From positions 23,668-87,667 of the forward strand of contig JAJPGV010000039.1 in assembly GCA_021325635.1 (NCBI GenBank): 64,000 nucleotides of DNA, read 5' to 3'. This document shows, piece by piece, positions 20,304 through 40,709 of the stretch. Source of the DNA: Chloroflexota bacterium. Its GTDB lineage: Bacteria > Chloroflexota > JAJPGV01. A model generated the notes under the pieces. It was given only the letters and a program-made list of their open reading frames with translations. It did no database searches and had not been told where the DNA came from. Made by a program: the position numbers and the translations under genes. Every line of letters starts with the position of its first letter. Position 1 is the first letter of the stretch.

Positions 20304-20340
20304 TTATTCGCACGTTAACGGCGAATTCATCCGCTGTTTG
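20304..20340 (+). promoter_or_regulatory. 11-bp-phased direct repeat array
   Basis: TTAT 20304, TTAA 20315, TTCA 20326, TTTG 20337. Confidence 0.5.
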
Positions 20341-20406
20341 TCGTGGTGCGGACAAGATGAAGAGAGAAGCCACACGCCTCAGAGGCGCCTTCTTAGGAGC
20401 ATCGTC

Positions 20407-21537: not shown

Positions 21538-21692
21538 CCGCGGGCAAACAGCCGCAATCGGCACACCTGCTGCAGCGCGGGGGCTTGTCTCCCACGGGTT
21601 AGCCGGAGCTCCCATGAGAAGGCGAACGGAGACCGGCGGGCCGTAAGAGCTGCATGGGATCAGTCGGGACGCGAACGAGCGGGCGAATGGGC

Positions 21693-22847: not shown

Positions 22848-22992
22848 TTCCTTCCCACCGCCTGAGGGCTAGGAGCATGCCCGGAATGCGATTCCCGGTG
22901 CATTCCCTCCGCCCGAAAAACGGATCAGCATTCGCAACGTCCGCTCCGACGGTGCCCCTCCCCCGCCGCCTTCGATCGTTCCCGGCATGGTC

Positions 22993-23490
22993 TTAGTCCT
23001 TGATAGCAAGCTTCTTCTGCGGCGGCGTAGGGCCCGACGACAGGAGGGTGACGGTGAGCATCCCATCCTTGAGCTTCGCCTCGGCCCTGTCGGCGTCCAC
23101 GTCATTGGGCAGACGAAGCGTTCGGGTGAAAGAGCTGGAGTACTGCTCTCTCACAAAGTAGTCTCTCTCGGCGGGCTCCTGCGGCTCGGTGCGCAAGCGC
23201 CGTACGGTGAGGACGTCACCTTCGATCGTGGCTTCAATCTCCTCCGGCTTGGCGCCGGGCAGCCCAATCTTGACGACGATTCGGCCGTCTTCCTTGAACA
23301 TGTCGACCGCCGGCTGCAGCTTGCCGGACGGCGGCTCGCACGGCAGCCAATCCCATGGCCACGAGGCGAGTCGCTCCATGACCTCCGCCAACCTTCGGAT
23401 CTCTGTTCTCCACGGGTCCCGCATCAGACGATCGAGCTCCAGCAGCGTCAAACGTTCTCGCTTGGTGCTTGTGTCAGCCATGTGTGCCAA
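22993..23490 (-). CDS. Hsp20/alpha-crystallin small heat shock protein
   Basis: PAVDM.....LPG.KPEEI, FTRTLRLP, AEAKLKDGMLTVTL. Confidence 0.9.
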   Translation of the reverse strand: MAHMADTSTKRERLTLLELDRLMRDPWRTEIRRLAEVMERLASWPWDWLPCEPPSGKLQPAVDMFKEDGRIVVKIGLPGAKPEEIEATIEGDVLTVRRLRTEPQEPAERDYFVREQYSSSFTRTLRLPNDVDADRAEAKLKDGMLTVTLLSSGPTPPQKKLAIKD

Positions 23491-23509
23491 TCAACCTCCT
23501 TAGCCGGCC

Positions 23510-26110
23510 TCACGCGGCCGGATTGGCGCTGGGCTCACCGCGACCTCGCCCGGGAGCCGGCTGCCGCCGCCTCAGACGTGGCGTGCGTGGCCCGACCTCC
23601 GCCGGAGTGCGCTCGCGCAACTCGGGCTGCTCTACCGGCCGGTTGTAGCTTTTCAAGCGCTCGGCGTATTCCCGCAGCCGGTGATCGACCGAGCCGTTGA
23701 CGGTGCCGTCCGGCCACGTTTCATCGAGGTCACGCCGGCCGGCAGGAACGCCAGCAAGAATCTCGATAGCTTGGTCCACCGTATCCACCGCCCAGACGTG
23801 GAAACGCCCCTCACGAGCGCTGTCGACGATGTCCTCCCTGAGCATCAGGTGGTTGACGTTCCGCCGCGGGATGATCACCCCCTGATCGCCGCTGAGACCC
23901 TTCGACTTACAGGTGTCGTAAAAGCCTTCGATCTTGCGGGTTACTCCCCCAACCGGCTGGACCTCGCCCAACTGATTCACCGAGCCGGTGATGGCAATGT
24001 CCTGCCGCAACGGCACGGTACCCAGCGCCGACAGGAGCGCGCACAGCTCGGCGCAGGAAGCGCTATCGCCCTCGATCTCGTCGTAGGTCTGCTCGAACGT
24101 GATACGCGCAGCCAGCGCCAGCGGCTTGTCTTGGGCATATCGGGCCATGAAGAACGTAGTCAGGATGAGGAAGCCCTTGTTGTGAATGCGGCCACTGAGC
24201 CTGGTCTCCCGCTCCAGGTTCATGACCCCCTCGCTGCCGAGGGATGTTTGAGCCGTAATGCGCACCGGCCGGCCGAAAGAGTAGTCGCCAACGTCCAGGA
24301 CCGACAGCGCGTTGACCTGCCCAACGCGGGACCCGGACGTATCGATGAGCAGGGTCCCTTCCTCCATGAGGTCGCTCAGCTTCTCTTCGAACAGGTTGGA
24401 GCGGAAGGTCCGGGCCTCGATAGCCTGCCGGACGTGTTCGGCAGTTACTATCTGGCCGCCCGCCTGGCCCGCCGCGTGACTGGCTTCCACAACCACGTCA
24501 CCGATGTCCTTGAAGCGGGCGCTGAGCCGGCCCTGATGCTCGGTCAAGCGAGCGCCGTATTCGGCAATCTTGGCGACGGCGCTTCGGTCGAAATGCCTGA
24601 GCTTGAGCTCCCGAACCTGGCTGCTCACAAACCCGGCGTAGCTTGCCAGCTGCTCGGCATTGGTCTTGAGCTCATTGTCGAAGTCGGCCCGAACTCGGAA
24701 GAGCTTCGGAAAGTCCTCGTCGTAGAAATACAGGAGGTAGTAGATGCGCGGCAGGCCGATCAGGACGACCTTCACGTCCAGTGGAATGGGCTGCGGGCGC
24801 AGGGTCGCGGCCGGAAAGGCCATGTACTGCTCGCCCAGGTTCTCGATTCGCAGCTCGCCGGTCTGCAGAGCCCTCTTGAGTGTATTCCAGGCAAATGGGC
24901 TGCCCAGAACATCCAGCGCGTTGAGCACCAGGTAGCCGCCATTCGCCCGATGCAGAGCGCCGGCCTTGATCATCGCGAAATCCGTGACCATGGCCCCGAG
25001 CTGGCCGCGGTACTCGATCCGGCCCAGCAGGTTGTAGTACGTGGGGTTGGACTCGAACACCACGGGGGCGCCGGCCAGACCCTGGTTGTTGACCAGGACG
25101 TTCACCTGGTAGCGCCTGAAGACGGCGTCCTCAGCCTCACCACGCATCTGCTGGAGAAGCTGGGGCAGGGAACCCTGCTCCGACTCGCCGGCCTCACCCT
25201 GGCGCCAGATCTCCTCGTCATGAGTCACCAGGTCTTCCTGGGCCTGCAGCAGGTAATCGACAATCGCCGGTTGATCCTGGTACTTCTCCTGCAGGACCTT
25301 GATGAGCGGGGCAATCGTCGATCGCGCCACCTGCTGATGCAGCTCGGCCATGCGCTCATGGGCGTCCTTTTCGAACTGCCGGATCTGCTCCCACACGTCC
25401 ATGAAGGCTCGACTGATCTCCTCGCCATGCTGGAGGAGGCCGGCACGCTTGTCCTCCGGCAGACTATCCAGCTCTTCAGGCTTCATCGGCCGGCCGTGCA
25501 CGATGGGGATGACAGCCGGACCGCCGGGAGTGATGGTGATGCCCAGGCCTTCCTTTTCCGCCTGCTCACTGAGGCCGTGCAGCAGCCGGTCGCGGGGCTC
25601 GGTAACCGCTCTGTGCACCTCTTCTTGCGCCCGCCGGTACTCACGGCTTTCGAACACGCGCCGAAGGTCTCGCCGCACGTTAGCAATCAGTTGCCGCACG
25701 TCCTCCTGGAACACCACCGCTCGGCCCGGTGGCAGGCTGATGGCGGCAGGTTGAGCCGGGTCCTTGAAGTTGAAGACGTAGCACCAGTCGTCAGGGGCCG
25801 GGCGGCGAGCTGCCAGCTGGCGAAGATACAGCGCCGCGGTGGTCCTGCGGCCGGTTCCGGAGGGCCCGGCGACGAAAAGATTGAAGCCCGGCGCCTCGGT
25901 GGCGAGGCCAAAGGACAGCGCGCTGAGTGCACGCGGCTGACCCACCGTCCCATCCAGGGGCGGTACCTGCTCGGTGGTGTCGAAGGGAAAGGCCGTCGGA
26001 TCGCACGTCCAGCGCAGCTGCGCCGGCGAAACTTCGAGCGGACGGGTATCCACTGCGTCTGGGGTCGGTTGCTGGCCGTTTGGCGACGGCGGGCGGGCGG
26101 ACCTGTCCAT
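23510..26110 (-). CDS. Lon-like protease of the LonC/AAA_32 type
   Basis: GQPRA, GALHRANGGYL, Ser-Lys dyad EGDSAS...KIEGF; degenerate Walker A GPSGTGRRT. Confidence 0.9.
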   Translation of the reverse strand: MDRSARPPSPNGQQPTPDAVDTRPLEVSPAQLRWTCDPTAFPFDTTEQVPPLDGTVGQPRALSALSFGLATEAPGFNLFVAGPSGTGRRTTAALYLRQLAARRPAPDDWCYVFNFKDPAQPAAISLPPGRAVVFQEDVRQLIANVRRDLRRVFESREYRRAQEEVHRAVTEPRDRLLHGLSEQAEKEGLGITITPGGPAVIPIVHGRPMKPEELDSLPEDKRAGLLQHGEEISRAFMDVWEQIRQFEKDAHERMAELHQQVARSTIAPLIKVLQEKYQDQPAIVDYLLQAQEDLVTHDEEIWRQGEAGESEQGSLPQLLQQMRGEAEDAVFRRYQVNVLVNNQGLAGAPVVFESNPTYYNLLGRIEYRGQLGAMVTDFAMIKAGALHRANGGYLVLNALDVLGSPFAWNTLKRALQTGELRIENLGEQYMAFPAATLRPQPIPLDVKVVLIGLPRIYYLLYFYDEDFPKLFRVRADFDNELKTNAEQLASYAGFVSSQVRELKLRHFDRSAVAKIAEYGARLTEHQGRLSARFKDIGDVVVEASHAAGQAGGQIVTAEHVRQAIEARTFRSNLFEEKLSDLMEEGTLLIDTSGSRVGQVNALSVLDVGDYSFGRPVRITAQTSLGSEGVMNLERETRLSGRIHNKGFLILTTFFMARYAQDKPLALAARITFEQTYDEIEGDSASCAELCALLSALGTVPLRQDIAITGSVNQLGEVQPVGGVTRKIEGFYDTCKSKGLSGDQGVIIPRRNVNHLMLREDIVDSAREGRFHVWAVDTVDQAIEILAGVPAGRRDLDETWPDGTVNGSVDHRLREYAERLKSYNRPVEQPELRERTPAEVGPRTPRLRRRQPAPGRGRGEPSANPAA

Positions 26111-26134
26111 GCACTCATGCTCCCCTCCGGGCGC

Positions 26135-26171
26135 TAAACGCCCACTAAAGCCGCTGGCAACCGCCGATAAA
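26135..26171 (-). promoter_or_regulatory. 11-bp-phased direct repeat array
   Basis: + strand TAAA 26135, TAAA 26146, GCAA 26157, TAAA 26168. Confidence 0.55.
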
Positions 26172-26215
26172 TTCCGCCCCTGGCTCGGGCGGGGGCGCTT
26201 GTGGCCGAAAGCCGC

Positions 26216-26404
26216 TCAGTCTTGGATGGGAGCGAGCTCCGGAAGGCGCGCCAAGAAGGACACGATGATTTGCTCGTCCTGCTTCAGTCCCTGCCGAAAC
26301 TCATAGTTCTCCGTGTCCCGGATCTCCATCCGCAGGTCGCCCAGGTAGTTCCGCAAGACACCCCCGATCACGGCTACTTCTTGGTCGCTGAAATCGAGTT
26401 GCAT
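26216..26404 (-). CDS. Small hypothetical protein (62 aa)
   Basis: RBS AGGAG; helical sequence LRNYLGDLRMEIRDTENYEFRQGLK; has its own phased-repeat promoter. Confidence 0.7.
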   Translation of the reverse strand: MQLDFSDQEVAVIGGVLRNYLGDLRMEIRDTENYEFRQGLKQDEQIIVSFLARLPELAPIQD

Positions 26405-26446
26405 AAGCCACCTTCTCCTGTTGCTTCGAGCCTAGGAACGAGGAAG

Positions 26447-26483
26447 CCAACACCCGGCAAATGACACGAAAACGTTGCATAAA
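26447..26483 (-). promoter_or_regulatory. 11-bp-phased direct repeat array
   Basis: + strand CCAA 26447, CAAA 26458, AAAA 26469, TAAA 26480. Confidence 0.45.
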
Positions 26484-26613
26484 CGGCGAACGCACTGGGG
26501 CTTCACGGTCGCCGCTGTCCCTCCCTGCTCGCGCCGGACGTGCCCGCACAAATCGGGCCCTGCTCGTTGGCCCGTGCATGGTCATCCCCCTCTCTGCCGG
26601 CAGCAGGACCGGC

Positions 26614-26650
26614 TTTAGCACCCGTTTGCACGTCCTTGACGGGAAGTTCG
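26614..26650 (+). promoter_or_regulatory. 11-bp-phased direct repeat array upstream of the coo-pnt operon
   Basis: TTTA 26614, TTTG 26625, TTGA 26636, TTCG 26647. Confidence 0.55.
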
Positions 26651-26713
26651 CGCGGCGCTGCCTACCGTACTCCTGTAGGCCTTGCCTCACATCAACCAGC
26701 AGGTGCAGACGTC

Positions 26714-27454
26714 ATGACCATGGGGCTTCGATCCGAGCGCCAAAGGCGGGCGCCACGCAGCGTGTTCGTGAACCCCGAGCACTGCATTGGCTGCCGCCAG
26801 TGCGAGTTCGCCTGCGCTGTCGAGCACTCGCGGAGCAACGACCAGTTCGCCGCCTTCCTCGAGGATCCTGTGCCTCGCACGAGGGTGCACGTCGAGGCGG
26901 GGGACGTGCCCTCGACCTCGTTCCCGAACCGCTGCCGCCATTGCGATCCGGCTCCCTGCCAGCAAGTCTGCCCGACCGGAGCCGTCAGCCGCGACGACGA
27001 GATGGGCGTTGTCCTCATCGAGGCTACGCGCTGCATCGGCTGCGCCATGTGCGCCGTCGTCTGCCCGTTCGACGTCATCAGCTTCTATCCGCTGGCCGAA
27101 GGGCCCGATCCACAGACCGCCGTCGCCGTCAAGTGCGACGGTTGTATCGACCGACAGCGCCGCCACGAGGTTCCGGCTTGCGCCGAAGCCTGCAAAGTGG
27201 AAGCGCTGGTGTACGGCGAGCTGAACGAGCTGATCCGGTCCGGCCGGGTGCGCGAAACCCGCGCGGTGCTAGGGGCGGCGGACCTCACTCACCAGCCAGC
27301 CGCCGACCCGCTCGCCGGCTGGCACGCCTGGGGTGATGAAATCCTCACGGTCGCGGCCGCGGCGCACATGCCGGGGCACAACCACCATAACGGGCACGGC
27401 AATGGGCACGGCCCGGCCAAGAGCACTAACAAGAGCGATGGAGGTTCCCGATGA
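26714..27454 (+). CDS. cooF: CooF-type 4x[4Fe-4S] electron-transfer subunit with a His-rich C-terminal tail
   Basis: CIGCRQCEFAC, CRHCDPAPCQQVCP, CIGCAMCAVVCP, KCDGC...PACAEAC; overlaps cooS by ATGA. Confidence 0.9.
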   Translation: MTMGLRSERQRRAPRSVFVNPEHCIGCRQCEFACAVEHSRSNDQFAAFLEDPVPRTRVHVEAGDVPSTSFPNRCRHCDPAPCQQVCPTGAVSRDDEMGVVLIEATRCIGCAMCAVVCPFDVISFYPLAEGPDPQTAVAVKCDGCIDRQRRHEVPACAEACKVEALVYGELNELIRSGRVRETRAVLGAADLTHQPAADPLAGWHAWGDEILTVAAAAHMPGHNHHNGHGNGHGPAKSTNKSDGGSR

Positions 27455-29397
27455 GCACCGTCAGCCGCGACGGCCACCACAGCGGCCGGCTCACAATCAA
27501 CGAAGACGCCCGACGCATGATCGACGTCGCCCGCGAGGAAGGCATCGAGACCGTGTGGGATCGTCTTCAGGCCCAGCAGCCCCAGTGCGGCTACTGTTCC
27601 CTGGGGGTCTCATGCCGCAACTGCTCTATGGGCCCATGTCGCATCGACCCCTTCGGGGCCGGACCGCAAAAGGGCGTTTGCGGCGCCGACGCCGACGTTA
27701 TCGTCGCCCGCAACCTGGGCCGAACCATCGCTGCCGGCTCGTCGTCCCATTCCGACCACGGCCGCGACATTCTGGAAGTCTTCCTGGCCACGGCCAAAGG
27801 TGAGACGACCGGCTATCGCATTGCCGATGAAGCGAAGCTGCTGCGCCTCGCCGCCGAATTCGGCATCCCCAGCGACGGTCGCTCGGTCAGCGACGTAGCC
27901 AGCGACCTCGCGGACCGCCTCTTCGAGGACTTCGGCAGCCGCAAAGAGCACCTGTCGTTCGTGGAGCGCGCGCCGGCCAAACGGCGCGAAGTGTGGGAGA
28001 AGCTCGGCATCGTCCCTCGCGGCATCGATCGTGAGAACGTCGAGATGCTGCACCGCACGCACATGGGCGTTGACAATGATTATGTCAACATCTTGCTCCA
28101 TGGCCTGCGCACTGGTCTGTCGGATGGCTGGGGCGGCTCGATGATCGCTACGGAGCTGTCCGACATCATGTTCGGCACGCCAAGCCCACGCATGTCCGAA
28201 GTGAACCTGGGCGTGCTTCGGTCCGACCAGGTCAACGTGGCCATGCACGGGCACAATCCCCTCCTGTCCGACGTGATCGTCAGCGCCGCCCAGGACCCCG
28301 AGCTGCTCGAGCTGGCCCGTTCCTATGGCGCTACCGGTATCAACGTCGTCGGCCTGTGCTGCACGGGCAATGAACTCCAGATGCGGCGTGGCGTGCCGAT
28401 AGCCGGCAACCACCTGATGCAGGAGCTGGTGATGATGACCGGCGCCCTGGAAGCCATGGTCGTGGACTACCAGTGCATCATGCCTTCGGTCACCGACGTG
28501 GCCAAGTGCTACCACACCCAGATCATCTCCACCGCCGACAAGGCCAAGTTCCCCGGGGCGACGCACGTGTCCTTCGATCCCCACCGCGGCGCAGAGATCG
28601 GGAAGCAGATCGTGCGCATGGCTGTTGAGGCCTATCCCAATCGCAACCCGGATCGCGTGCGCATTCCAGTCAAGCCGGTGCAGATGATGGCCGGGTTCTC
28701 GGTGGAAGCCATCCTCGGAGCCCTGGGCGGAACCCCCAAGCCCCTGGTGGATGCCATCGCCGGCGGAGCCATCCGGGGAGCGGTCGCCGTGGTTGGCTGC
28801 AGCAACCCCAAGGTTCCCCAGGACTATGGCCACGTGGAGCTCACCCGCCAGCTCATCGAGCACGACGTGCTGGTGATCGTGACGGGCTGCGCCGCTGTGG
28901 CCAACGGGAAGGCCGGCCAGATGCTGCCGGAGTCGGCCCGCATGGCCGGGCCGGGCCTGCGTGGAGTGTGTGAGGCGCTCGGCATCCCGCCGGTGCTGCA
29001 CATGGGCTCGTGTGTCGACAACAGCCGCGTGCTGGTACTGGCCGGGGCGCTGGCCAGCTACCTGGGAGTCGACATCGATCAGCTGCCCCTGGCCGGAGCC
29101 GCGCCGGAGTGGTATTCGGAGAAGGCCGTGGCCATCGGCGCCTACGTCGTCGCCAGCGGGGTCAAGACCGTGCTGGGCGTGCAGCCGCCGATCTTCGGCA
29201 GTCCGCATGTCGTCGACCTGCTGGCCAACGGGCTCGAGGGCGTCACTGGCGCGACCTTCGCCATCGAGCCCGACCCGGCCAAGGCGTCGCTGCTGATTCG
29301 TCGACACATCGAGGCCAAGCGCAAAGCGCTCGGCCTGCCATACGAGGAAGTGGAGGAGATGGCCCCGGCGGTCGAGGCCGTGGGGACCGGAGCGTAA
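27451..29397 (+). CDS. cooS: Anaerobic Ni,Fe carbon-monoxide dehydrogenase catalytic subunit
   Basis: B/D cluster motif CGYC..GVSCRNCSMGPC...GVCG; SHSDH proton relay; C-cluster ligands HGHNP, LCCTGNE, DYQC, GCSNPK, TGCA, GSCVD; catalytic Lys in SEKA. Confidence 0.97.
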   Translation: MSTVSRDGHHSGRLTINEDARRMIDVAREEGIETVWDRLQAQQPQCGYCSLGVSCRNCSMGPCRIDPFGAGPQKGVCGADADVIVARNLGRTIAAGSSSHSDHGRDILEVFLATAKGETTGYRIADEAKLLRLAAEFGIPSDGRSVSDVASDLADRLFEDFGSRKEHLSFVERAPAKRREVWEKLGIVPRGIDRENVEMLHRTHMGVDNDYVNILLHGLRTGLSDGWGGSMIATELSDIMFGTPSPRMSEVNLGVLRSDQVNVAMHGHNPLLSDVIVSAAQDPELLELARSYGATGINVVGLCCTGNELQMRRGVPIAGNHLMQELVMMTGALEAMVVDYQCIMPSVTDVAKCYHTQIISTADKAKFPGATHVSFDPHRGAEIGKQIVRMAVEAYPNRNPDRVRIPVKPVQMMAGFSVEAILGALGGTPKPLVDAIAGGAIRGAVAVVGCSNPKVPQDYGHVELTRQLIEHDVLVIVTGCAAVANGKAGQMLPESARMAGPGLRGVCEALGIPPVLHMGSCVDNSRVLVLAGALASYLGVDIDQLPLAGAAPEWYSEKAVAIGAYVVASGVKTVLGVQPPIFGSPHVVDLLANGLEGVTGATFAIEPDPAKASLLIRRHIEAKRKALGLPYEEVEEMAPAVEAVGTGA

Positions 29398-29402
29398 GCC
29401 AG

Positions 29403-30281
29403 ATGTGCGACGTCGACGAGCGGCATCAGCACGCGGTTGATGCCGCCATAGCAGGCGGCGAAGGGCTGCGCACGGTGGTCGTGGGCAAGGGGGGAGTGGG
29501 GAAATCGACGATCACCGCGCTGCTGGCCCGCATTCTCGCGCGGCGAGGAGCCCAGGTGCTGGCTGTCGACGCTGATGAGCAGCGTAACCTCGCAGCTACC
29601 CTGGGCCTCGCCGCCGCCGCCGCCGCAATCGTTCCCCTGGCCGAACAGGCCGACTACGTCGAAGAGAAGACGGGCGCTCGGCCGGGTGAAGGGTCGGGCG
29701 GCATACTGCGGCTCAATCCCGACGTCTCGGACGTCGTCGAGCGCCTGGGCGTTCCGGCGCCAGATGGCGTCCGCTTGCTGGTCATGGGCACGGTGCGCCG
29801 CGCCGGAAGCGGCTGCCTCTGTCCGGAGCACTCACTGTTAGCGGCAACCGTGGGCGGCATGAGCCTGCGCCGAGGTGAAGTGGTGCTGATGGATACCCAC
29901 GCCGGCGTAGAACATTTCGGCCGCGCGCTGGCCCGCGGCTTCGATCGGGCGCTCGTGGTAGTCGATCCCACCTTCAACGCCATGCACGTTGGCGTCGAAG
30001 CGGCGCGTCTCTCGATCGACCTCGGAATCCATGACGTCCGACTGCTGGTCAACCGCGTGCGTGGGCCCGACGACCTGTGCCGCGCTCTGGACAACATCAG
30101 CCGAGCGGGTGACTTTGCCTTCCACTCGCTGCACGCGCTGCCCTACGACGAGCTAGCCATGGCGAGTGAGCCGGCAGTCGACGAGCTGCTGCGCGGGTCG
30201 GATCTGGCCGGCGCCGTTGGCGCGCTGGCGGCCGAGCTGGTTCCGGCAGCCACCACTCCCATCCTCCAGGCGGTGCGCTGA
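29403..30281 (+). CDS. cooC: CODH nickel-insertion ATPase
   Basis: GKGGVGKST deviant Walker A, DAD..NL, GSGCLCPE Ni-binding motif, DTHAGVEHFGR. Confidence 0.93.
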   Translation: MCDVDERHQHAVDAAIAGGEGLRTVVVGKGGVGKSTITALLARILARRGAQVLAVDADEQRNLAATLGLAAAAAAIVPLAEQADYVEEKTGARPGEGSGGILRLNPDVSDVVERLGVPAPDGVRLLVMGTVRRAGSGCLCPEHSLLAATVGGMSLRRGEVVLMDTHAGVEHFGRALARGFDRALVVVDPTFNAMHVGVEAARLSIDLGIHDVRLLVNRVRGPDDLCRALDNISRAGDFAFHSLHALPYDELAMASEPAVDELLRGSDLAGAVGALAAELVPAATTPILQAVR

Positions 30282-31534
30282 TGCGCGCGGTGATTATTGG
30301 CACGGGTCCGGCGGGCATCACCGCCGCCCTCACCCTGCGGCAGCTCGATCCTTCCGGCGCGGTAACCGCGCTGTCGGCCGAGCCGTACCCGCCCTACTCG
30401 CCGCCGGCGATAGCCGACCATTTCCTGACCGGCCGCGATCAGACGCTGTACTGGCAGGGCAGGGACGTTGCTCAGCGCCTAGGCATCGAGGAGCGGCGCG
30501 AAGCTTGCGTCGCGGCGGTGGACAGCTGCAACCGCGAGGTCGTCCTGGCGGACGGCGACCGTATCCGGTACGAAAGATTGATCGTCGCTTCGGGCAGCCG
30601 GCTGCACGCGCCCTTAACAGGCGCGGAGCTGCCGGGCGTGTACGACTTCAAGTCGCTGCGAGTGGCCACCGAGATGATTGGTCGGGTGCGCTCCGGCGAG
30701 GTCAAGAGCGCGCTGATCGTGGGCAACGGCTTTATCGGCATCGAGCTAGCCCTGCTGCTGGCCGATCTCGGCGTCGACGTGACCATCATCGGCCGCAGGT
30801 CGTGGGTCATGCCTCGCGTATTGGATCCTGAGACCTCCGCCGTGGCCGAAGCAGCCCTGGAGGCGCGAGGCGTGACCCTCCGCCTGGGCCTGGAAGCTGA
30901 GGCATTCATAGGCGATGGCGGCGTCACCGGGGTGCGCCTAGCCGGAGGAGAAGTCGTCACCGCCGGGATGTACATCGCCGCCACCGGCGTGAAGCCGCAC
31001 GTCGAGTTCCTTGGCGGCTCGGACGTGACGGCCAGGTGGGGCGTGGAGGTCGACGACCGGCTGCGCACAACCGATCCCAACATCTTCGCCGCCGGCGACG
31101 TGACCGAAGCCGCCGACCGCCTCACCGGCGAGCCATACGTGCACGCCATCTTCCCCAATGCCGTGGCCCAGGGCCGTGTCGCCGCCCTGAACGCCCTGGG
31201 GCGAGACATACGTTACGAGGGAGCTGAGGCGATGAACAGCCTCAAGCACCTCGGAGTGCCCATCGTCGCCATGGGCAGCACCGACCACCCGGATGAGATC
31301 CTGCGCCGTCATGACGGCGCGGGGCTGCGCTCGATTTACCTGCGCGACGGCCAGATCGTGGGCGCGCAGCTCGCCGGGGACATCAGCGCCGCGGGCATCT
31401 ATCGCTCGCTCATGCTCCGCCGGGCGAAGGTGCGCCCGTTCGGCAAGCGCATCATCGAGCCCGGCTTCGGCATGAGCCAGATTGTTTGGGACGCAATGCA
31501 GCCAGGCCGGATCCATGCCTGTGCCGCAGCCTGA
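30281..31534 (+). CDS. FAD-dependent NAD(P)H oxidoreductase (FNOR, NirB/rubredoxin reductase-like)
   Basis: IIGTGPAG, PYSPP, IVGNGFIGIE, ATGVKP, IFAAGD; start overlaps the cooC stop. Confidence 0.9.
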   Translation: MRAVIIGTGPAGITAALTLRQLDPSGAVTALSAEPYPPYSPPAIADHFLTGRDQTLYWQGRDVAQRLGIEERREACVAAVDSCNREVVLADGDRIRYERLIVASGSRLHAPLTGAELPGVYDFKSLRVATEMIGRVRSGEVKSALIVGNGFIGIELALLLADLGVDVTIIGRRSWVMPRVLDPETSAVAEAALEARGVTLRLGLEAEAFIGDGGVTGVRLAGGEVVTAGMYIAATGVKPHVEFLGGSDVTARWGVEVDDRLRTTDPNIFAAGDVTEAADRLTGEPYVHAIFPNAVAQGRVAALNALGRDIRYEGAEAMNSLKHLGVPIVAMGSTDHPDEILRRHDGAGLRSIYLRDGQIVGAQLAGDISAAGIYRSLMLRRAKVRPFGKRIIEPGFGMSQIVWDAMQPGRIHACAAA

Positions 31535-32744
31535 AGCCGACCCGGTGGGACAGCCGGGAGCAAGTCCGGTGCGAATCGCCGTCCTGAAGGAGACCCGCCC
31601 GGGCGAACGGCGAGTCGCCCTGGTGCCCGGCACGGTCGACAAGCTGCGCCAGCTCGGAGCCGACGTCCGGATGCAGGCCGGAGCCGCCGAGGGCATCAGT
31701 CTGCCCGACGCGGCGTTCCACAACGTGGCCTTCGGCCAGGACCCGCGCAGCCTCGTAGGCGACGCGGACATCGTCCTGGCCGTTCAGCCACCGGCGGTTG
31801 AAGTGGTCAACGCTATGAAGCCAGGCGCGATCCTGATCTCCTTCGTCTACGCTGAAAGAGAGCCCGCGCTGGTCCAGGCTCTGTGCGCGCGGCGCGTCAC
31901 CTGCTTCGCCATGGAGCTGGTTCCGCGCTCCAGCCGGGCGCAAGCGGTCGACGCGCTTTCCAGTCAGGCCGCCCTGGCCGGCTACTACGCGGTGCTGCTG
32001 GGAGCTACCAAGCTCACCCGCATTCTGCCGATGATGACCACGGCTGTTGGCGCCCTGCGTCCGGCAACCGTGCTGGTCATGGGCCTCGGGGTGTGCGGGC
32101 TGCAAGCCGTCGCCACGGCTCACCGCCTGGGCGCCATCGTCGAGGGCTACGACGTTCGCCCCGAAACGCGGGGGGAGGTGCAGTCGCTTGGAGCGAGATT
32201 CGTCGACACCGGCATCGATGCCCGAGGTGAAGGCGGTTACGCCCGCGAGCTGACGAGCGACGAGCGCCAGCACGTTGCCGACGTACTGACCAGGCACATC
32301 CAGCAGGCCGACCTCGTCATCACCACGGCCGCCGTGCCTGGCCGGCCGGCCCCGCGGCTCGTCAGCCGGCCCCAGGTGGAAGGCATGAAGCCAGGCTCGG
32401 TCATCGTGGACCTGGCCGCCGAGGGTGGCGGGAACTGCGAGTGCTCGCGTCCCGACGAGGTTGTCCGGGTAGGCCAAGTCACCGTCCTGGCTCCCTCGAA
32501 CGTTCCCTCACTGCTGGGCGAGCACGCCAGTGAGCTCTATGCCAAGAACCAGGTCAACCTGCTCCAGCTGATGCTCCGCAATGGCCGCATCGACATCGAC
32601 TGGTCCGATGACATCCTGGCCGGCAGCGTGCTCACCCACGATGGGGAGATCAAGAACCGCACTGCGCGGCAGGCGCTGGAGCCGCGCCGGAGTGAGCCGG
32701 TGCAGGCACCCGACCACGTGCAGCCAGGGCTTGCTCGATCGTGA
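31515..32744 (+). CDS. pntAA: NAD(P) transhydrogenase subunit alpha, part 1 (domain I)
   Basis: KETRPGERRVALVP, DALSSQAALAGY, MMTTAVG, YDVRPE, GEGGYA, VDLAAEGGGNCE. Confidence 0.95.
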   Translation: MPVPQPEADPVGQPGASPVRIAVLKETRPGERRVALVPGTVDKLRQLGADVRMQAGAAEGISLPDAAFHNVAFGQDPRSLVGDADIVLAVQPPAVEVVNAMKPGAILISFVYAEREPALVQALCARRVTCFAMELVPRSSRAQAVDALSSQAALAGYYAVLLGATKLTRILPMMTTAVGALRPATVLVMGLGVCGLQAVATAHRLGAIVEGYDVRPETRGEVQSLGARFVDTGIDARGEGGYARELTSDERQHVADVLTRHIQQADLVITTAAVPGRPAPRLVSRPQVEGMKPGSVIVDLAAEGGGNCECSRPDEVVRVGQVTVLAPSNVPSLLGEHASELYAKNQVNLLQLMLRNGRIDIDWSDDILAGSVLTHDGEIKNRTARQALEPRRSEPVQAPDHVQPGLARS

Positions 32745-32754
32745 GGAGGCATTG

Positions 32755-33075
32755 ATGACGCTGCAATTGACAATCACTGGCTTCGTGGCCATCTACATCT
32801 TCATGCTGGCGGCCTTCACCGGGTATGAGGTCATCAGCCGGGTTCCGGCCATCCTGCACACGCCGCTGATGTCCGGATCCAACTTCGTCCATGGCATCGT
32901 GGTCGTGGGTGCACTGTATGCCCTTCTCAATGCCACGTCCCTCACCGAACAGATCATCGGCTTCGTGGGCGTCGTTCTCGGAGCGGCCAACGCCGCCGGT
33001 GGCTACGTCGTGACCATCCGCATGCTGGAGATGTTCAAGGTCAGCCATTCCCGGACCGGCGAGAAGGTAACGTGA
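32755..33075 (+). CDS. pntAB: NAD(P) transhydrogenase subunit alpha, part 2
   Basis: VPAILHTPLMSGSNFVHG, GGYVVT.RMLEMF; GGAGG RBS. Confidence 0.95.
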   Translation: MTLQLTITGFVAIYIFMLAAFTGYEVISRVPAILHTPLMSGSNFVHGIVVVGALYALLNATSLTEQIIGFVGVVLGAANAAGGYVVTIRMLEMFKVSHSRTGEKVT

Positions 33076-34496
33076 ACCTCGGCTGGCTGGTCGCCCTGGT
33101 CGACGTCGTGGTCGCCTTCCTTCTCATCTTCGGCCTCAAGCAGATGGCCTCCCCGGTCACTGCGCGATCCGGCATCGGCTTAGCCGGCGCGGGCATGCTC
33201 GCCGCCGTGCTGGCCGCTCTGCTGTATGTCCTCGATGTGGCGCCGGACGCCCAGCCACACGTGACCGCGAACGCGATTCTCGCCGCGCTCGCCCTGGCTC
33301 TAGGGCTGGGCTGGGCGTGGTGGGCCGGCTCCCGGGTTCCCATGACCGCCATGCCGCAGATGGTCGCCATCTACAACGGCATGGGCGGCGGGGCCGCGGC
33401 GGCGATTGCCGCCACCGAGCTGCTCGGTGCCGGCCAGGGGGCCAGCACTCGGCTGGCCATAGCGGTTGTTGGCGGTTTGATCGGCTCCGTGTCGCTGTCC
33501 GGATCAGTCGTGGCCTGGGCCAAGCTGGACGAGCGGCTGAAGCGACCGTGCCGAATCAAGGGCCAGCAGATGCTCAATGCGCTGGTGATGCTGGCTGCGA
33601 TCGTCCTTGGCTTCAGCACGATCCTCGTCATGCCGCGCAGCCCTGGCCTGGCGGCGCTGTTCTTCTTCGCAGCGCTGCTCTTTGGGGTGCTCATGACGCT
33701 GCCCATCGGCGGGGCCGATATGCCCGTGGTGATTTCGCTGTACAACGCCTGCACCGGTGTGGCGGTGGGGCTCGATGGCTACGTCCTCCAGAACCCTGCG
33801 CTGATGGTTGCCGGCACGATTGTGGGCTCAGCCGGCACGCTGCTCACCGTGCTCATGGCACGAGCCATGAACCGCTCCGTTCGCAACGTCCTGTTCGCGA
33901 ACTTCGGCGCGACCGGCAGCGCAGCACAAGCCGGTGCCGTGGGCGCTCTCAAACCGGCCGAGGCCAGCGACGCGGCCATTTTCATGCGCTATGCCCGCAA
34001 AGTCATCGTCGCGCCCGGCTACGGGCTAGCCGTCGCGCAGGCTCAGCACAAGCTCTACGAGCTGGTCAAGCTGTTGCAAGCCGCCGGCGTGGAAGTCAAG
34101 TTCGCCGTGCACCCGGTGGCGGGACGCATGCCCGGACACATGGACGTGCTCCTCGCCGAGGCGGGCGTACCCTACGACCTCATTTTCGAGCTCGATGACA
34201 TCAACGACGAGTTCGACGATGCCGACGTCGCTCTCGTGATCGGCGCCAACGACGTCGTCAATCCGGCGGCCCGCGTGGACCGATCGTCACCGATTTACGG
34301 CATGCCGATCTTGAACGTGGACCATGCGCACCAGGTCTACGTGATCAAACGCGGGCAGGGGAGAGGCTACTCGGGCATCGAGAATGCCCTGTTCTACGCG
34401 CCCAATTGCGCCATGGTCTACGGCGACGCCCAGGCCGTCCTGGTCAAGATGATTCAAGCCATCAAAGATCTCACCGCGGAGCCGCAGGCGGCGTGA
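33072..34496 (+). CDS. pntB: NAD(P) transhydrogenase subunit beta
   Basis: MTAMPQMVAIYNG, IGGADMPVVISLYN, PGYGLAVAQAQ, HPVAGRMPGHM, GANDVVNP. Confidence 0.97.
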   Translation: MNLGWLVALVDVVVAFLLIFGLKQMASPVTARSGIGLAGAGMLAAVLAALLYVLDVAPDAQPHVTANAILAALALALGLGWAWWAGSRVPMTAMPQMVAIYNGMGGGAAAAIAATELLGAGQGASTRLAIAVVGGLIGSVSLSGSVVAWAKLDERLKRPCRIKGQQMLNALVMLAAIVLGFSTILVMPRSPGLAALFFFAALLFGVLMTLPIGGADMPVVISLYNACTGVAVGLDGYVLQNPALMVAGTIVGSAGTLLTVLMARAMNRSVRNVLFANFGATGSAAQAGAVGALKPAEASDAAIFMRYARKVIVAPGYGLAVAQAQHKLYELVKLLQAAGVEVKFAVHPVAGRMPGHMDVLLAEAGVPYDLIFELDDINDEFDDADVALVIGANDVVNPAARVDRSSPIYGMPILNVDHAHQVYVIKRGQGRGYSGIENALFYAPNCAMVYGDAQAVLVKMIQAIKDLTAEPQAA

Positions 34497-34562
34497 AATC
34501 CCACCGCTTTCTCGCCACTTGCTCTCAATCGACCTTGCGCTGCCTATGAGGGGGAAGGTGCC

Positions 34563-34937
34563 ATGAATCTGTACCCGCTTCCACCGCTCGCTTCCGGCAG
34601 GGAAGCGCTCCTGAACATCTTCAAACGGCCACCCTTCGCGGAAGCCGCGGCGCGCGCGGCCGACCAGGCGGGGTTGAGCCCGCGCACACCCGAGATCGGG
34701 CCCAACAAGCTGGTCTCGCTAGGTATCGGCGCCCAAACCGTGGGCGTGGTCCAGACGGTAGACGCGAGCCAGGCACAGATGGTGGCCAGCAACATGAACG
34801 CCGACTACCGGCTGCTGGTCAACAGCAGCGGCGGCACAACCGAGGTGCAGCCGGTCATCGGGAACATCAACGGCCTGGCCAATTTGCACAACGGGATAGC
34901 CGACCTCTCCGGCTTCCATCCCCTGGGGTCTGTGTAG
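34563..34937 (+). CDS. Hypothetical protein
   Basis: Purine-rich RBS and coding-like GC3 bias; no family recognised. Confidence 0.55.
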   Translation: MNLYPLPPLASGREALLNIFKRPPFAEAAARAADQAGLSPRTPEIGPNKLVSLGIGAQTVGVVQTVDASQAQMVASNMNADYRLLVNSSGGTTEVQPVIGNINGLANLHNGIADLSGFHPLGSV

Positions 34938-35094
34938 CGCCGCTTCGACGAACGGGCGCGGCCTTTTCGATACGCCAACGGCCACGCAAAGTGGGGTGGT
35001 TGCCTCCGGCAACAAGTGTGCCGCTTTCGACCTTGCCGGTGCGCTGCCCGGAACCTATCCTGGTGTTGATTACGGAGCGAGGAGCAAGCTACCC

Positions 35095-35409
35095 ATGCGC
35101 ATGATGATGAAAGTCAGTTTCCCGGTAGAAAAGGCGAACCAGACCATCGCCGACGGCAGTCTGCCCAGGAACATGCAGGCAATCCTGGGCGAGCTGAAAC
35201 CCGAGGCAGCCTACTTCACAACCTTCCAAGGCAAGCGGACCGCCTTCGTCTTCTTCGACCTGCAGGACCCCTCACAGATGCCGTCCGTGGGCGAGCCGTT
35301 CTTTCTCGCATTCAATGCCGAAGTTGATCTCTACCCGGTCATGAGTCCCGCCGACCTCGAAAAGGGCCTCAGCGGAATCGAACAAGCAGTCCGCACCTAT
35401 TTCAAATAG
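35095..35409 (+). CDS. Conserved hypothetical protein (DUF3303/GYD-like small alpha/beta protein)
   Basis: LKPEAAYF...GKRTAFVFFDLQDPSQMP..GEPFF pattern; AGGAG RBS. Confidence 0.7.
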   Translation: MRMMMKVSFPVEKANQTIADGSLPRNMQAILGELKPEAAYFTTFQGKRTAFVFFDLQDPSQMPSVGEPFFLAFNAEVDLYPVMSPADLEKGLSGIEQAVRTYFK

Positions 35410-35439
35410 CTCGGCAGCCGCGGCTGCGATGGGCCGCGC

Positions 35440-36546
35440 TCAGCGGCCCATGAAGCTCGGAGGCGTAGGCCGTAGGCGATCGGGCGTCTGCGGCGGGCTG
35501 AGTTCATAGACGCGCAGGGTCTTGTCGTCCGCACCCATCGCCAGATACCGGCCATCCGGTGACCAGGCTGTCCCGTTCGTGTCATAGCCCACGTCGTCGC
35601 GAGCGATAAGGGCTCCCCCGGCGTCGAGGATCTTCAGGTCGAAGGACACCGAGGTGAGCGCCAGCAGCTTGCCATTGGGCGACCATGAGACCGTGCCCGA
35701 TTGGCGCCCCTTGGGAAGCTCGCGAATGAGCTTGGCGGTGGCGGGATTCACCAGCAGCAGCGCTCCGTCGTCGTAGGCGATGGCCAGCGTTTGCCCATCA
35801 GGGGACAGGCTCATGCTGTTCACCGCCTTGTGCGCGACATCCGGCTGGAATATGCGCACCGGCTTGGCCTGCCCTGCAGCGAAAAAGGCGACCCGGCCCG
35901 TCTCGTCACTGGCGGCGACCTCCCCGCCGGGCAGCCACAGCAGCGCCCGCGTCCTAACGTCCCCAACCTGGAAGCTGTCGACGAGGGTGCCGTCCTTGGC
36001 CTCGAACAGCTGCACCGTGTTTCGGCCTTGTGCGAGGGCGAAGCGTTGACCGTCGGGCGACCACGCCACGGATGGGTACGTCGTCGGATACGCGGTAACG
36101 CTGTATGCCACCTGGAGCGATTCGGGATCGGAGACACGCACGCTGCCGTCGCCCGCGGCCGTCAGCAGCCGCTTGCCGTCGGGGGACCAAGCCAGGCCCG
36201 TGGTCTGGCCCACGTGCAGCTTCCGGATCACCGCGTCCTCACCCGGCTGGAGCTGAAGCTTGAGCACGGCCACCGTGCCGTCCTCGGCGCCGATGGCCAG
36301 CCTGAGTCCGTCCGGTGAAAAGGCGACGGTCTCCACGTGATCCTCACCCACCGGCTGGCGGAGGATCTCCTTGAGCGATACGCCCGAAGCGCTTGGCAGG
36401 GCGGACCCGGCTGACGGCGCCTGACTGGCTGGAGAGGCCGGTGCGATCTGCCCTGGACTGGCCGAGCAGGCTGCCACGGTAAAGGCCGCGAGCACGCCCA
36501 CGGTCCAACGAACCCGCTTGAGCAAGCTAGCGCCGCGGAGGCTCAT
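35440..36546 (-). CDS. WD40-repeat beta-propeller lipoprotein
   Basis: Lipobox VAAC; repeated (W/F)SPDG..LA motifs, about seven blades. Confidence 0.9.
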   Translation of the reverse strand: MSLRGASLLKRVRWTVGVLAAFTVAACSASPGQIAPASPASQAPSAGSALPSASGVSLKEILRQPVGEDHVETVAFSPDGLRLAIGAEDGTVAVLKLQLQPGEDAVIRKLHVGQTTGLAWSPDGKRLLTAAGDGSVRVSDPESLQVAYSVTAYPTTYPSVAWSPDGQRFALAQGRNTVQLFEAKDGTLVDSFQVGDVRTRALLWLPGGEVAASDETGRVAFFAAGQAKPVRIFQPDVAHKAVNSMSLSPDGQTLAIAYDDGALLLVNPATAKLIRELPKGRQSGTVSWSPNGKLLALTSVSFDLKILDAGGALIARDDVGYDTNGTAWSPDGRYLAMGADDKTLRVYELSPPQTPDRLRPTPPSFMGR

Positions 36547-36741: not shown

Positions 36742-36993
36742 ATGGAGCAACCACACAACACCGTCGTGCTGGACGTACGTGACGACCTACGAGAGGGCCG
36801 CGAGCCGTTCCAGCGGATCATGATGACCGCCAACAGCCTCGCGCCCGACCAGGCGATGGAGCTGTGGGCCCTGTTCGAGCCTAAGCCGCTGTTTGCCGTC
36901 ATGACGGGGATGGGCTTTGAATACGAGGCAGAAGCGCAGCCCAACGGCGATTGGCGCGTGCGTTTCTTCCGGTCGGGTCACGTGCAGGCGTAG
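36742..36993 (+). CDS. DUF2249 domain protein
   Basis: LDVRDDLREGREPFQRIM, FEPKPLFAVM, GDWRVRF. Confidence 0.85.
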   Translation: MEQPHNTVVLDVRDDLREGREPFQRIMMTANSLAPDQAMELWALFEPKPLFAVMTGMGFEYEAEAQPNGDWRVRFFRSGHVQA

Positions 36994-37000
36994 GATCCCG

Positions 37001-38341
37001 ATGAGCCAGCCTGTCACGACGCCCACCATGCCGGATCCGGCCCAGCCACTGCCGAGCATGCCCGCGGGACCGCTGCTGTCCGGGCTCAGCACCTCCCGCG
37101 CTGCGTCGCTCAGCCTGCCGCTGCGCTACATGGTGGCGGGCCTGGCGTTCGCCGTGCTGGCATTCGGCTTCGCGCTGGCCTACTCGCCGTCATTCCTAGG
37201 CACGGTGTTTCTCACGCCCCGCCTTCTGGCCGTTACCCACCTCACGGCCCTGGGCTGGCTGACCATGGTCGCGATGGGCGCCTTGTACCAGTTCATTCCC
37301 GTCGTGCTCGACGTACCGATTTTCAGCGAGCGCCTCGGCAAGGTGCAGTTCTACCTGTACCTGGCAGGAGTGCTGGGATTGACGGTGGAGATGGGCACGG
37401 GCCGGACGCAGGTCATGGCCTGGCCGGCGGGCTTGTTGGTGCTGGCCGTTGGCGTGTTCCTCTACAACGCCGCTCGCACGCTGGCGCGTGTGGAGCGCTG
37501 GCCGCTCACAGGCTGGTACATCCTTGCGGCTCTGACGTCGCTGGCCCTGGTAGTGACGGTCGGGTTCGCCCTGGCCCTGAACCTCACCCTGGGGTTCCTG
37601 CCGTTGAGCCAGCTGGCGTTCGTCGAAGCCCATGCGCACCTGGCAGCGCTGGGATGGCTAGGCCTGCTGGTCATGGGCGTTTCCTACAAGCTGACGCCGA
37701 TGTTCGCGCTGTCCCACCCCTTCAATGAGTGGCGCCTTGGAAGGCCCATCTTCATCCTGCTGACCGCCGCGGTCGTTGGGCTGTTCGTCAGCTTACTGCT
37801 GCGGCTCGGACAAGCGCCGCTGCTGGGATGCTGGTCGGTGGCCGCGATCGGGATTGGCTTGTACGCCTGGGACTACGCCACGATGCTGCGGGTACGCCGC
37901 CGGCGGCCCATTGACCTAACGCAGCAGCACAACATCGCCGGCCTGGGCGGACTGCTGCTCACGACCCTGCTCGGCCTAGCCTTGATCCTGGTGCCGGCCG
38001 AGACCGACCTACATCCGCGGCTGCAGCTGGCCTACGCGGCCGCAAGCCTGGGCGGGTGGATCGGGCTCACCACGCTGGGGCAGCTGTACAAGATTGTGCC
38101 CTTCCTGGTCTGGACTCACCGCTTTGCCCCGAGGATGGGCAAGGCGCCGGTTCCCCTCCTCAAGGACCTCTATCCTCAGGTGCTGGCACGGGCCGGCTTC
38201 GGCGCTCTGCTGGCCAGCCTGACCATAGCTCTTGCCGGCATCCTCGCCGGCTACCTTCCAGCTATCCAGGCCGGTTTTGGCCTGTGCACGCTGGGCGCCG
38301 CCCTTACGGCGGTCAATCTCATTCGGGTGGTGTTGCGATGA
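37001..38341 (+). CDS. Polytopic His-containing membrane protein (NnrS/heme-copper-oxidase-fold related)
   Basis: THLTALGW..MVAMGALYQFIPV, HAHLAALGW, GQLYKIVPFLVW; about 12 TM segments. Confidence 0.75.
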   Translation: MSQPVTTPTMPDPAQPLPSMPAGPLLSGLSTSRAASLSLPLRYMVAGLAFAVLAFGFALAYSPSFLGTVFLTPRLLAVTHLTALGWLTMVAMGALYQFIPVVLDVPIFSERLGKVQFYLYLAGVLGLTVEMGTGRTQVMAWPAGLLVLAVGVFLYNAARTLARVERWPLTGWYILAALTSLALVVTVGFALALNLTLGFLPLSQLAFVEAHAHLAALGWLGLLVMGVSYKLTPMFALSHPFNEWRLGRPIFILLTAAVVGLFVSLLLRLGQAPLLGCWSVAAIGIGLYAWDYATMLRVRRRRPIDLTQQHNIAGLGGLLLTTLLGLALILVPAETDLHPRLQLAYAAASLGGWIGLTTLGQLYKIVPFLVWTHRFAPRMGKAPVPLLKDLYPQVLARAGFGALLASLTIALAGILAGYLPAIQAGFGLCTLGAALTAVNLIRVVLR

Positions 38342-40649: not shown

Positions 40650-40709
40650 ACCTTCACTGCGTCACCCAAGAGCTGACGCGAACGTCGACAAACGGCGAGA
40701 CGACCTCCG

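Follow-up and report, generated by a model that had tools for sequence, protein, structure and literature searches.

The stretch analysed here, hereafter the window, comprises 64,000 nucleotides of a contig from a Chloroflexota bacterium (JAJPGV010000039.1, positions 23,668 to 87,667 of the forward strand). Between positions 26714 and 34496 of the window lie seven open and intact open reading frames (ORFs), all on the + strand, in the order cooF-cooS-cooC-FNOR-pntAA-pntAB-pntB (Table 1). The first four encode a nickel-iron carbon monoxide (CO) dehydrogenase (CODH), its ferredoxin-like partner, a predicted maturation ATPase and a flavoprotein, and the last three a proton-translocating membrane transhydrogenase (Pnt). 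The names given to all seven ORFs in an earlier reading made from the letters alone (the sequence-only reading) were confirmed by Pfam and NCBIfam. What is new here is the presence of pnt directly behind FNOR; the CooS/CooF/FNOR kind of cluster is already known.

The packed cluster and its components

The seven genes leave almost no room between them. cooF and cooS overlap by 4 nt (ATGA), 5 nt separate cooS from cooC, cooC and FNOR share 1 nt (TGATG), a gap of 10 nt follows pntAA, and pntAB and pntB again overlap by 4 nt (GTGA). The tight packing claimed by the sequence-only reading thus holds at these junctions (-4 to +10 bp), but the 20-bp overlap that it placed between FNOR and pntAA stands only if translation of pntAA starts at ATG 31515; a start at GTG 31569 would leave a gap of 34 bp. 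Where does pntAA begin? The pntA profiles start at the Val encoded by GTG 31569, and a GGGAG lies 8 nt upstream of this GTG. An ATG two codons ahead of the conserved Val is found in 16 of the 18 relatives compared, the exceptions being one relative with GTG at that site (L104) and one in which the aligned position is itself ATG (L172). At 31515 the window gene reads ATG-CCT-GTG and then has 16 extra codons. This part of pntAA (31515-31568) may hold a 16-codon insertion after a Met-Pro-Val start like that of the relatives, possibly left behind when pnt became joined to FNOR. With either start, there is no space for an ordinary intergenic region between FNOR and pntAA. The C-terminus of FNOR is of ordinary length relative to its relatives, so that pnt starts exactly where the cassette ordinarily ends.

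No transcription signal was found inside the cluster. Indeed, the FNOR/pntAA junction has neither a terminator-like hairpin nor a sigma-70-like promoter (RNA fold z = +0.69), and a consensus scan of 26000-35500, which recognises sigma-70-like promoter sites only, returned no promoter-like site and terminator-like sites at chance level only. An Rfam search of the window gave zero matches, and the non-coding region ahead of cooF, which alone would have room for the unit's promoter or operator, likewise contains no sigma-70-like site and no Rfam match. Judging from gene order and spacing, the seven genes most likely form one transcription unit.

Table 1. Features of the cluster and of its downstream neighbourhood, in window coordinates.
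Feature	Position	Strand	Evidence and remarks
Non-coding region 5' of cooF	26405-26713		about 310 bp; sole space for the unit's promoter/operator
cooF	26714-27454	+	Fer4_11, 5.4e-18; four Cys motifs for [4Fe-4S] clusters
cooS, Ni,Fe CO dehydrogenase catalytic subunit	27451-29397	+	TIGR01702, 711.4 bits (cut-off 478)
cooC, predicted P-loop ATPase for nickel insertion into CooS	29403-30281	+	CbiA, 9.2e-15
FNOR	30281-31534	+	Pyr_redox_2, 4.2e-50, and Rubredoxin_C; Pyr_redox also matched
pntAA, transhydrogenase alpha-1, NAD(H)-binding domain I	31515 (ATG) or 31569 (GTG)-32744	+	AlaDh_PNT_N and AlaDh_PNT_C
pntAB, transhydrogenase alpha-2, four transmembrane helices	32755-33075	+	PNTB_4TM, 6.2e-30, profile positions 2-84 of 85
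pntB, transhydrogenase beta, membrane domain II and NADP(H)-binding domain III	33072-34496	+	PNTB, 7.5e-161, profile positions 3-455 of 456
ORF, 124 aa	34563-34937	+	66 bp past pntB; G-rich ribosome-binding-like site; gene status and unit membership uncertain
ORF, 104 aa, DUF3303-like	35095-35409	+	Atlas feature score 0.96, TM 0.95-0.96 to DUF3303 clusters; unit membership uncertain
Crp/Fnr-family regulator, candidate for the unit	39969-40661	-	cNMP_binding and HTH_Crp_2; no equivalog at cut-off

Could the join have been produced by a chimeric contig, or the contig been placed in the wrong bin? The genome (4.6 Mb, 96% complete) is an assembly of 63 contigs with an estimated contamination of 3.95%, and CooS is most similar to versions found in metagenome-assembled genomes (MAGs) labelled Acidimicrobiales, both of which speak for such an artefact. 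Against it, positions 25500-33372 are matched with 0 differences by an independently built Logan contig, from a run (X1) that is possibly the one behind the assembly. The runs of another study contain up to 93% of the sampled words and yield contig pieces on both halves of the cluster, again with 0 differences; none of the listed pieces bridges the FNOR/pntAA junction. The 96-kb contig is also typical of its genome: its GC fraction is 0.656 against 0.653, and by tetranucleotide distance it is one of the contigs nearest to the genome mean (rank index 7 of 54 contigs, counting from 0). The two halves of the cluster do not stand out in composition either, which gives no hint of recent transfer. 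Finally, the Cpn60 encoded 12 kb downstream groups with four genomes of the same family (81-83% identity), ahead of a MAG titled Limnocylindrales (69%) and of MAGs labelled Acidimicrobiales, Chloroflexia, Acidobacteriota and Gammaproteobacteria (61-66%), and the same ranking is seen with a fragment of RpoB, which is 74-75% identical to that of the Limnocylindrales MAG and 70% identical to that of an Acidimicrobiaceae MAG. An artefact is therefore very improbable.

CooS, which is single-copy in the genome, exceeds the equivalog cut-off of TIGR01702 and matches Prismane with 611.4 bits. Its best PDB match is 6b6v (806 bits, residues 15-629), with which it shares all Cys/His motifs (CxxC...C, CRNC..GPC, HGHNP, GLCCTGNE, DYQC, VGC, TGC and MGSCVDNSR); we assume here the usual assignment of these residues to the individual C-, B- and D-clusters. 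The D-cluster motif has the form C-x2-C-x5-C and reads C-G-Y-C-S-L-G-V-S-C. The survey PMC6344411, in its treatment of D-clusters, gives Cys-X-X-Cys-(X)5-Cys as the type III motif of structural group E-2, of which Desulfovibrio vulgaris CooS is a member. The window CooS would thus be E-2-like, of the D. vulgaris type, a placement made by motif and best PDB match rather than by a tree.

CooF is a ferredoxin-like electron-transfer subunit whose PDB relatives are four-cluster subunits, including 8c0z_C (1.7e-13). Its C-terminal tail is rich in His (window about 27359-27406), with some nine His in a 16-residue stretch that is also rich in Gly and Asn. This tail is absent from 18 relatives compared, two of which (L023 and L028) end in short His/Gly runs, and it could be a candidate nickel binder. 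CooC belongs to CbiA/MinD-type Pfam families and contains a GKGGVGKS P-loop and a C-L-C motif; we take the C-x-C metal motif to be the defining mark of the CooC nickel-insertion ATPase. No CooC-specific NCBIfam model was matched.

FNOR, an FAD-NAD(P) oxidoreductase of the COG1251 type, is a flavoprotein with two dinucleotide-binding domains, and its gene shares a directon with cooS and cooF. Its best PDB match is 8c0z_E (1.3e-48, full length). In the second Rossmann fold (window 30700-30830), the strand that follows the second GxGxxG ends in Gly-Arg-Arg-Ser. In an alignment of the window FNOR with 41 relatives, this Gly-Arg-Arg ending is shared with the seven closest (L013-L016, L018, L041 and L067), while 15 others end in Glu, three in Val-Arg-Ser-Arg, and 16 distant ones in a non-acidic Ile/Gly-x-Ser. 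8c0z_E has Glu at this position. In Rossmann folds, loss of the acidic residue together with a gain of arginines marks a preference for NADP(H), and by this rule the motif points to a window FNOR that prefers NADP+ over NAD+. This agrees with data on Geobacter sulfurreducens extracts in PMC4703632, where CO-dependent reduction of NADP+ exceeds that of NAD+. The flow from CO through CooF and FNOR to NAD(P)H, proposed by the sequence-only reading, is in line both with that report, as far as its extract data go, and with the NADP-type motif. The close FNOR relatives appear to display a natural switch between Glu and Gly-Arg-Arg, presumably between NAD and NADP, within one cassette family.

The transhydrogenase is split into alpha-1, alpha-2 and beta subunits that together hold the full domain set: domain I, the four-transmembrane part of domain II, and domains II and III. 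All Pfam scores are well above their cut-offs (PF05222, 111.9 against 30.4; PF01262, 201.4 against 23; PF12769, 103.9 against 26.2; PF02233, 536.6 against 31.7). The scores fall below the cut-offs of the Escherichia coli-type NCBIfam equivalogs (alpha, 349.5 against 383; beta, 335.1 against 689), and pnt is therefore assigned to the Pfam families and not to the E. coli equivalog. A lower alpha score is to be expected, as alpha-1 is a split subunit.

Distribution of the cassette, of pnt and of their join

We looked for the join from both sides. On the CooS side, with one genome per species, there were at least 597 CooS relatives, of which the best 80 loci were examined, with tblastn for the neighbours. 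On the pnt side, PntAA had 204 relatives in metagenomes, of which the best 80, 61-71% identical, were examined. Records of the genome itself or of its close kin were possibly left out of both surveys. Among the best 80 CooS-side loci, none of the 22 that extend at least 1.5 kb beyond FNOR has pnt after it. Conversely, none of the 80 pnt-side loci has cooF, cooS, cooC or FNOR near pnt; 51 of these loci include at least 1.3 kb of upstream sequence, and 25 at least 6 kb. The sole other CooS-side locus, among the 80, with pnt in its flanks is that of a Methanoregulaceae MAG (L081:10001-20048), in which the opposite strand carries pntAA-pntAB-pntB at a distance of about 5.4 kb from cooS, so that the two form no operon. 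Within the genomes and contigs searched, the join is specific to this lineage, and the surveys give no sign of a conserved CODH-Pnt system.

Nor has it been described. In the full-text literature searched we found no CODH-Pnt cluster, operon or coupling, in line with the sequence-only reading, which knew of no characterised operon of this kind; that search did not extend to the supplements of PMC6344411 and PMC13240472, where an entry is possible. The word 'transhydrogenase' has 0 occurrences in the main texts of these two papers.

The CODH half alone is far more widespread. Of the best 80 CooS-side loci, most have a CooF relative immediately upstream of cooS, 27 have a co-oriented FNOR downstream of it, and 18 have all four genes, with cooC sitting between cooS and FNOR. 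CooS proteins 74-85% identical to that of the window occur in MAGs labelled Acidimicrobiales/Actinomycetes, Limnocylindrales, Gammaproteobacteria, Acidobacteriota, Thermoanaerobaculia, Dehalococcoidia and 'delta proteobacterium' (L013-L031, L041 and L067), the gammaproteobacterial carriers being Woeseiaceae and the cultured Lentisalinibacter sediminis C23. As these identities are far above those of Cpn60 for the same groups (61-69%), the cassette has moved between phyla. Its recipients are mostly oxygen-respiring lineages. A tandem duplicate of cooS-cooC-FNOR is seen in one Actinomycetes-labelled MAG (L013:5053-13581), its CooS proteins being 83% and 81% identical to that of the window. None of the genes that flank the cluster in the window is syntenic with the 80 CooS-side loci, and in the genomes of the same family the neighbouring Lon-like gene has only fragmentary or weak matches, so that the synteny comparison failed there.

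What usually follows FNOR? In nine of 13 relatives examined the next gene is on the opposite strand, and in the other four (L016, L018, L023 and L037) the co-oriented genes that follow are of unrelated families, and the cassette thus ordinarily ends with FNOR. Among the genomic contexts of Ni-CODH, the FNOR-type cluster is recognised in the passages of PMC6344411, PMC13240472 and PMC4703632 that treat it. CooS/CooF/FNOR clusters were still described as a putative CO-oxidising unit without biochemical study in the 2019 survey (PMC6344411; see also PMC13240472). Judged from these comparisons, cooF-cooS-cooC-FNOR is a known and horizontally mobile kind of cassette.

The transhydrogenase half has another history. 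Compared with the PntB proteins of 300 further genomes from the phylum, that of the window reaches no more than 54% identity (55% on two fragments), and it is 40-50% identical to the matches in four Acidimicrobiales-labelled carriers of the cassette. With soil-type metagenome contigs, the identity is 58-71% for PntB and 61-71% for PntAA (best 80 of 204). With this pattern, pnt looks acquired, probably from a donor different from that of the CODH half. pntB is present in one copy in the 96%-complete genome. A second, housekeeping pntAB, for which the sequence-only reading had advised a search, thus does not exist in this assembly. That reading had also considered that the adjacency might be unique and pnt the ordinary housekeeping copy: the adjacency is indeed unique among the sequences searched and pnt is the sole copy, yet it does not behave like a normal housekeeping gene of this lineage, for it was not found in the four class relatives and its identity within the phylum sample does not exceed 54-55%.

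Both halves are accessory at this taxonomic depth. The class consists of five species genomes (including the unpublished G003), and neither pntB nor cooS was found in the four others, which are 79-92% complete. In the 300 other genomes sampled from the phylum (including the unpublished G321 and G420), cooS was found in 29, pntB in 96 and both in none, an avoidance with a naive Fisher p of 1e-5 in which kin are not independent. The genome of the window is thus the only one of 301 to have both genes, and it has them adjacent. Within this sample, cooS and pntB appear to mark different lifestyles.

From CO to the NAD(P)H pools

The host genome sets the frame for any use of CO. A search of the entire genome, 96% complete, gave no acetyl-CoA synthase gene (PF03598). 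No hydrogenase genes were seen among the window genes scanned and no Ech-type hydrogenase genes occur in the cluster; a NiFe hydrogenase large subunit is encoded on another contig. The genome carries two NuoD genes, two genes for subunit I of haem-copper oxidases (COX1), and, on contig C49 (87764-90034), a gene for the large subunit of a form-I Mo-CODH (TIGR02416, 1267.8 bits against a cut-off of 991). CO dehydrogenases of the aerobic and of the anaerobic type are thus encoded in a single organism. No soluble transhydrogenase SthA reaches the cut-off in this genome (best score, 355 bits against 465). From this gene content the organism would respire, and Pnt would be the only recognised route from NADPH to NADH among those searched for, which did not include NfnAB. 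Because Complex I is NADH-specific, NADPH derived from CO could reach it only via a transhydrogenase.

Here, we propose that the cluster is a lineage-specific operon fusion, in which a CO-fed, NADP-preferring CODH/CooF/FNOR module has become linked to the sole membrane transhydrogenase of the cell, and thus to NADH-dependent respiration and the proton gradient. We hold this reading tentatively, with a probability of roughly 0.45. The mobile cooF-cooS-cooC-FNOR cassette would have come to lie directly ahead of the only pntAA-pntAB-pntB of the genome. After maturation by CooC, CooS would oxidise CO, and the electrons would pass from its B- and D-clusters to the four-cluster CooF and on to the FAD of FNOR, which, by its motif, would reduce NADP+ rather than NAD+. 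Through the membrane Pnt, this NADPH would in turn be linked to the pool of NAD(H) and to the proton gradient, and CO-derived reducing power would reach the NADH-specific Complex I and the encoded oxidases. The coupling would run through free NADPH, and we claim no binding of FNOR to PntAA. Such a link between CO and the NADPH and NADH pools is plausible.

Does the presence of the cassette go along with that of pnt in other genomes? Among the carriers of close cassettes (CooS at least 74% identical), 19 of 21 genomes have pntB elsewhere in the genome; the search among carriers covered loci other than L033, L035 and L043-L092. For carriers titled Actinomycetes or Acidimicrobiales the count is 9/10, against a background of 57/121 in the class of one carrier (naive Fisher p = 0.017), the titles of the ten being no proof that they belong to that class.

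Several points weigh against the proposed fusion. The first is that carriers with a Glu-type, NAD-like FNOR also have pnt (10/10), so that co-occurrence at the genome level is not tied to the NADP-type FNOR, and that pnt is present in 0/6 carriers of a cooC-less version labelled Anaerolineae or Chloroflexia; the co-occurrence of cassette and pnt is confounded by lifestyle and shared ancestry. The second is that the adjacency is seen only here, and comparative evidence of selection for the join is therefore lacking. Moreover, the counts for class and phylum take in the three unpublished genomes named above, and the NADP preference of FNOR comes from a motif rule rather than an assay. Finally, a promoter within the 3' end of FNOR is possible, the scan having been limited to sigma-70-like sites.

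The last point leads to the simplest alternative, in which the two modules are neighbours only: Pnt would be a general transhydrogenase that happens to lie behind the cassette, is expressed from a promoter of its own within the end of FNOR and has no special tie to CO. We consider this a real possibility, nearly as likely as the fusion. The adjacency is found nowhere else among the sequences searched, pnt lies elsewhere in the genome in 19 other cassette carriers, and the composition of the cluster blends with that of the genome; furthermore, as a single-copy gene set pnt must serve general metabolism too. On the other hand, the junction leaves at most 34 bp, without a hairpin, and both modules are accessory in the class and otherwise mutually exclusive in the phylum sample. 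That two independent arrivals should have landed head-to-tail and in one orientation by chance in a 4.6-Mb genome is unlikely.

A different use of the same fusion is suggested by the genes around it. The surroundings (15781-26110 and 46384-54143) are rich in stress and dormancy functions. They encode Hsp20, Cpn60 and two universal stress proteins with tandem domains, a Lon-like protease and an M50 protease with one CBS domain, a triple-BON protein and a member of the baeRF family, as well as Fpg and three LigD end-joining genes, and the description of the region as a 'dormancy/stress island' is fair. In such a setting the cluster could be an operon for NADPH supply under hypoxic or oxidative stress: Pnt would run in its usual forward direction and make NADPH from NADH at the expense of the proton gradient, CODH/FNOR would be a second, CO-fed source of NADPH, and both would be co-induced to feed NADPH-dependent repair and antioxidant enzymes. 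The universal stress, Hsp20, Lon-like, BON-domain, LigD, Fpg and Cpn60 genes nearby are what such an operon might serve, the NADP-like motif of FNOR fits it, and CODH/FNOR clusters have been tied to oxidative-stress responses in the relevant passages of PMC6344411 and PMC13240472. However, two producers of NADPH need not be together, so that the tight join is explained no better than by chance, and the sequence cannot reveal the direction of Pnt. We consider this explanation rather unlikely.

In the fusion that we prefer, Pnt might also run in reverse (NADPH + NAD+ to NADP+ + NADH) and export a proton, which would create a hydrogenase-free coupling site for CO. In a hypoxic, non-growing cell of this soil bacterium, which is otherwise capable of aerobic life, the oxygen-sensitive Ni-CODH/CooF/FNOR would fill the NADPH pool from trace CO; the membrane potential would be sustained and Complex I fed with NADH, with no hydrogenase needed. 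Such a coupling site is thermodynamically conceivable by reasoning, no finding here supports it, and we regard it as still less probable than the supply of NADPH under stress.

How might such a unit be controlled? The sequence-only reading had stated that the window lacks genes for acetyl-CoA synthase, energy-converting hydrogenase and CooA or RcoM. This stands for the first two; the statement on CooA and RcoM needs a caveat, as a Crp/Fnr-family regulator is encoded at 39969-40661. It cannot be assigned as CooA, no equivalog having reached its cut-off. It is 26-28% identical to the products of Crp-like genes located directly upstream of cooS in two other loci (L072 and L087). Two genes for NnrS/COX1-like membrane proteins adjoin it (36917-40661). 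Closer to the cluster, the two small ORFs that follow pntB could each share a transcript with the seven genes. The first, of 124 aa, has no Pfam or NCBIfam match and no relative in the 160 fetched loci, and its Atlas model is poor (pLDDT 0.39). The DUF3303-like ORF, whose product is well folded in the model and which is the final + strand gene ahead of a convergent WD40 gene, has no Pfam match at E <= 0.01 and likewise no relative in the 160 loci.

Known systems and what the join would mean

The cluster combines traits of several known systems. The nearest are the CooS-CooF-FNOR clusters of G. sulfurreducens (GSU2098-2095), Clostridium ljungdahlii, C. autoethanogenum and Carboxydothermus hydrogenoformans (CODH-IV), which, in the cluster descriptions of PMC4703632 and PMC6344411, have the same Ni-CODH, CooF, CooC and FNOR in one directon. 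The route proposed for them, from CO through CooS, CooF and FNOR to NAD(P)+, is also the same. Here, in contrast, the order is cooF-cooS-cooC-FNOR, the three pnt genes follow directly, and no RcoM/Rrf2 regulator or rubrerythrin is seen adjoining. At the level of the catalytic subunit, the closest solved relative is the D. vulgaris-type CooS (6b6v, which we take to come from Desulfovibrio vulgaris), with which the C-, B- and D-cluster motifs align, the type III D-cluster motif included; unlike that sulfate reducer, the present organism has genes for aerobic respiration and for a form-I Mo-CODH.

The electron-transfer chain has a structural precedent in the tungsten aldehyde oxidoreductase AorABC (8c0z). 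As FNOR and CooF match its chains E and C, the succession of a catalytic subunit, a poly-ferredoxin and a nicotinamide-reducing FAD subunit is a solved architecture. The catalytic subunit is another enzyme, and chain E has Glu where the window FNOR has Gly-Arg-Arg; the Aor complex uses NAD+. The transhydrogenase has the same domain set, at full length, as the three-polypeptide PntAB, which is the form of Rhodospirillum rubrum and Thermus thermophilus, and as the two-polypeptide form of E. coli. In its relatives the pnt operon is free-standing, with an upstream region of its own, whereas in the window it abuts FNOR. A membrane partner for CooS, CooF and CooC is itself not without parallel. In the coo regulons of R. 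rubrum and Carboxydothermus, these proteins, with a CooS that is likewise monofunctional, are encoded beside a membrane ion-translocating complex, the energy-converting hydrogenase, and such systems are the established means of conserving energy from CO without acetogenesis. The membrane partner here would be Pnt, reached through free NADPH and not by direct electron transfer.

In conclusion, a mobile Ni-CODH cassette and the only transhydrogenase of this genome lie in what is most likely one transcription unit. The weight of this finding is limited, as the join is known from one species only. It bears nonetheless on the fate of the NAD(P)H made by the widespread CooS/CooF/FNOR clusters, for which it offers a testable hypothesis, from CO to NADPH and through Pnt to NADH and the proton gradient. 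The natural switch between Glu and Gly-Arg-Arg in FNOR could be used to probe nucleotide preference. If true, the reverse-Pnt reading would mean that the fusion of operons had created a new and minimal way to conserve energy from CO. Finally, the movement of a Ni-CODH cassette between phyla into oxygen-respiring carriers of Mo-CODH bears on the use of trace CO across oxic-anoxic shifts in soil.

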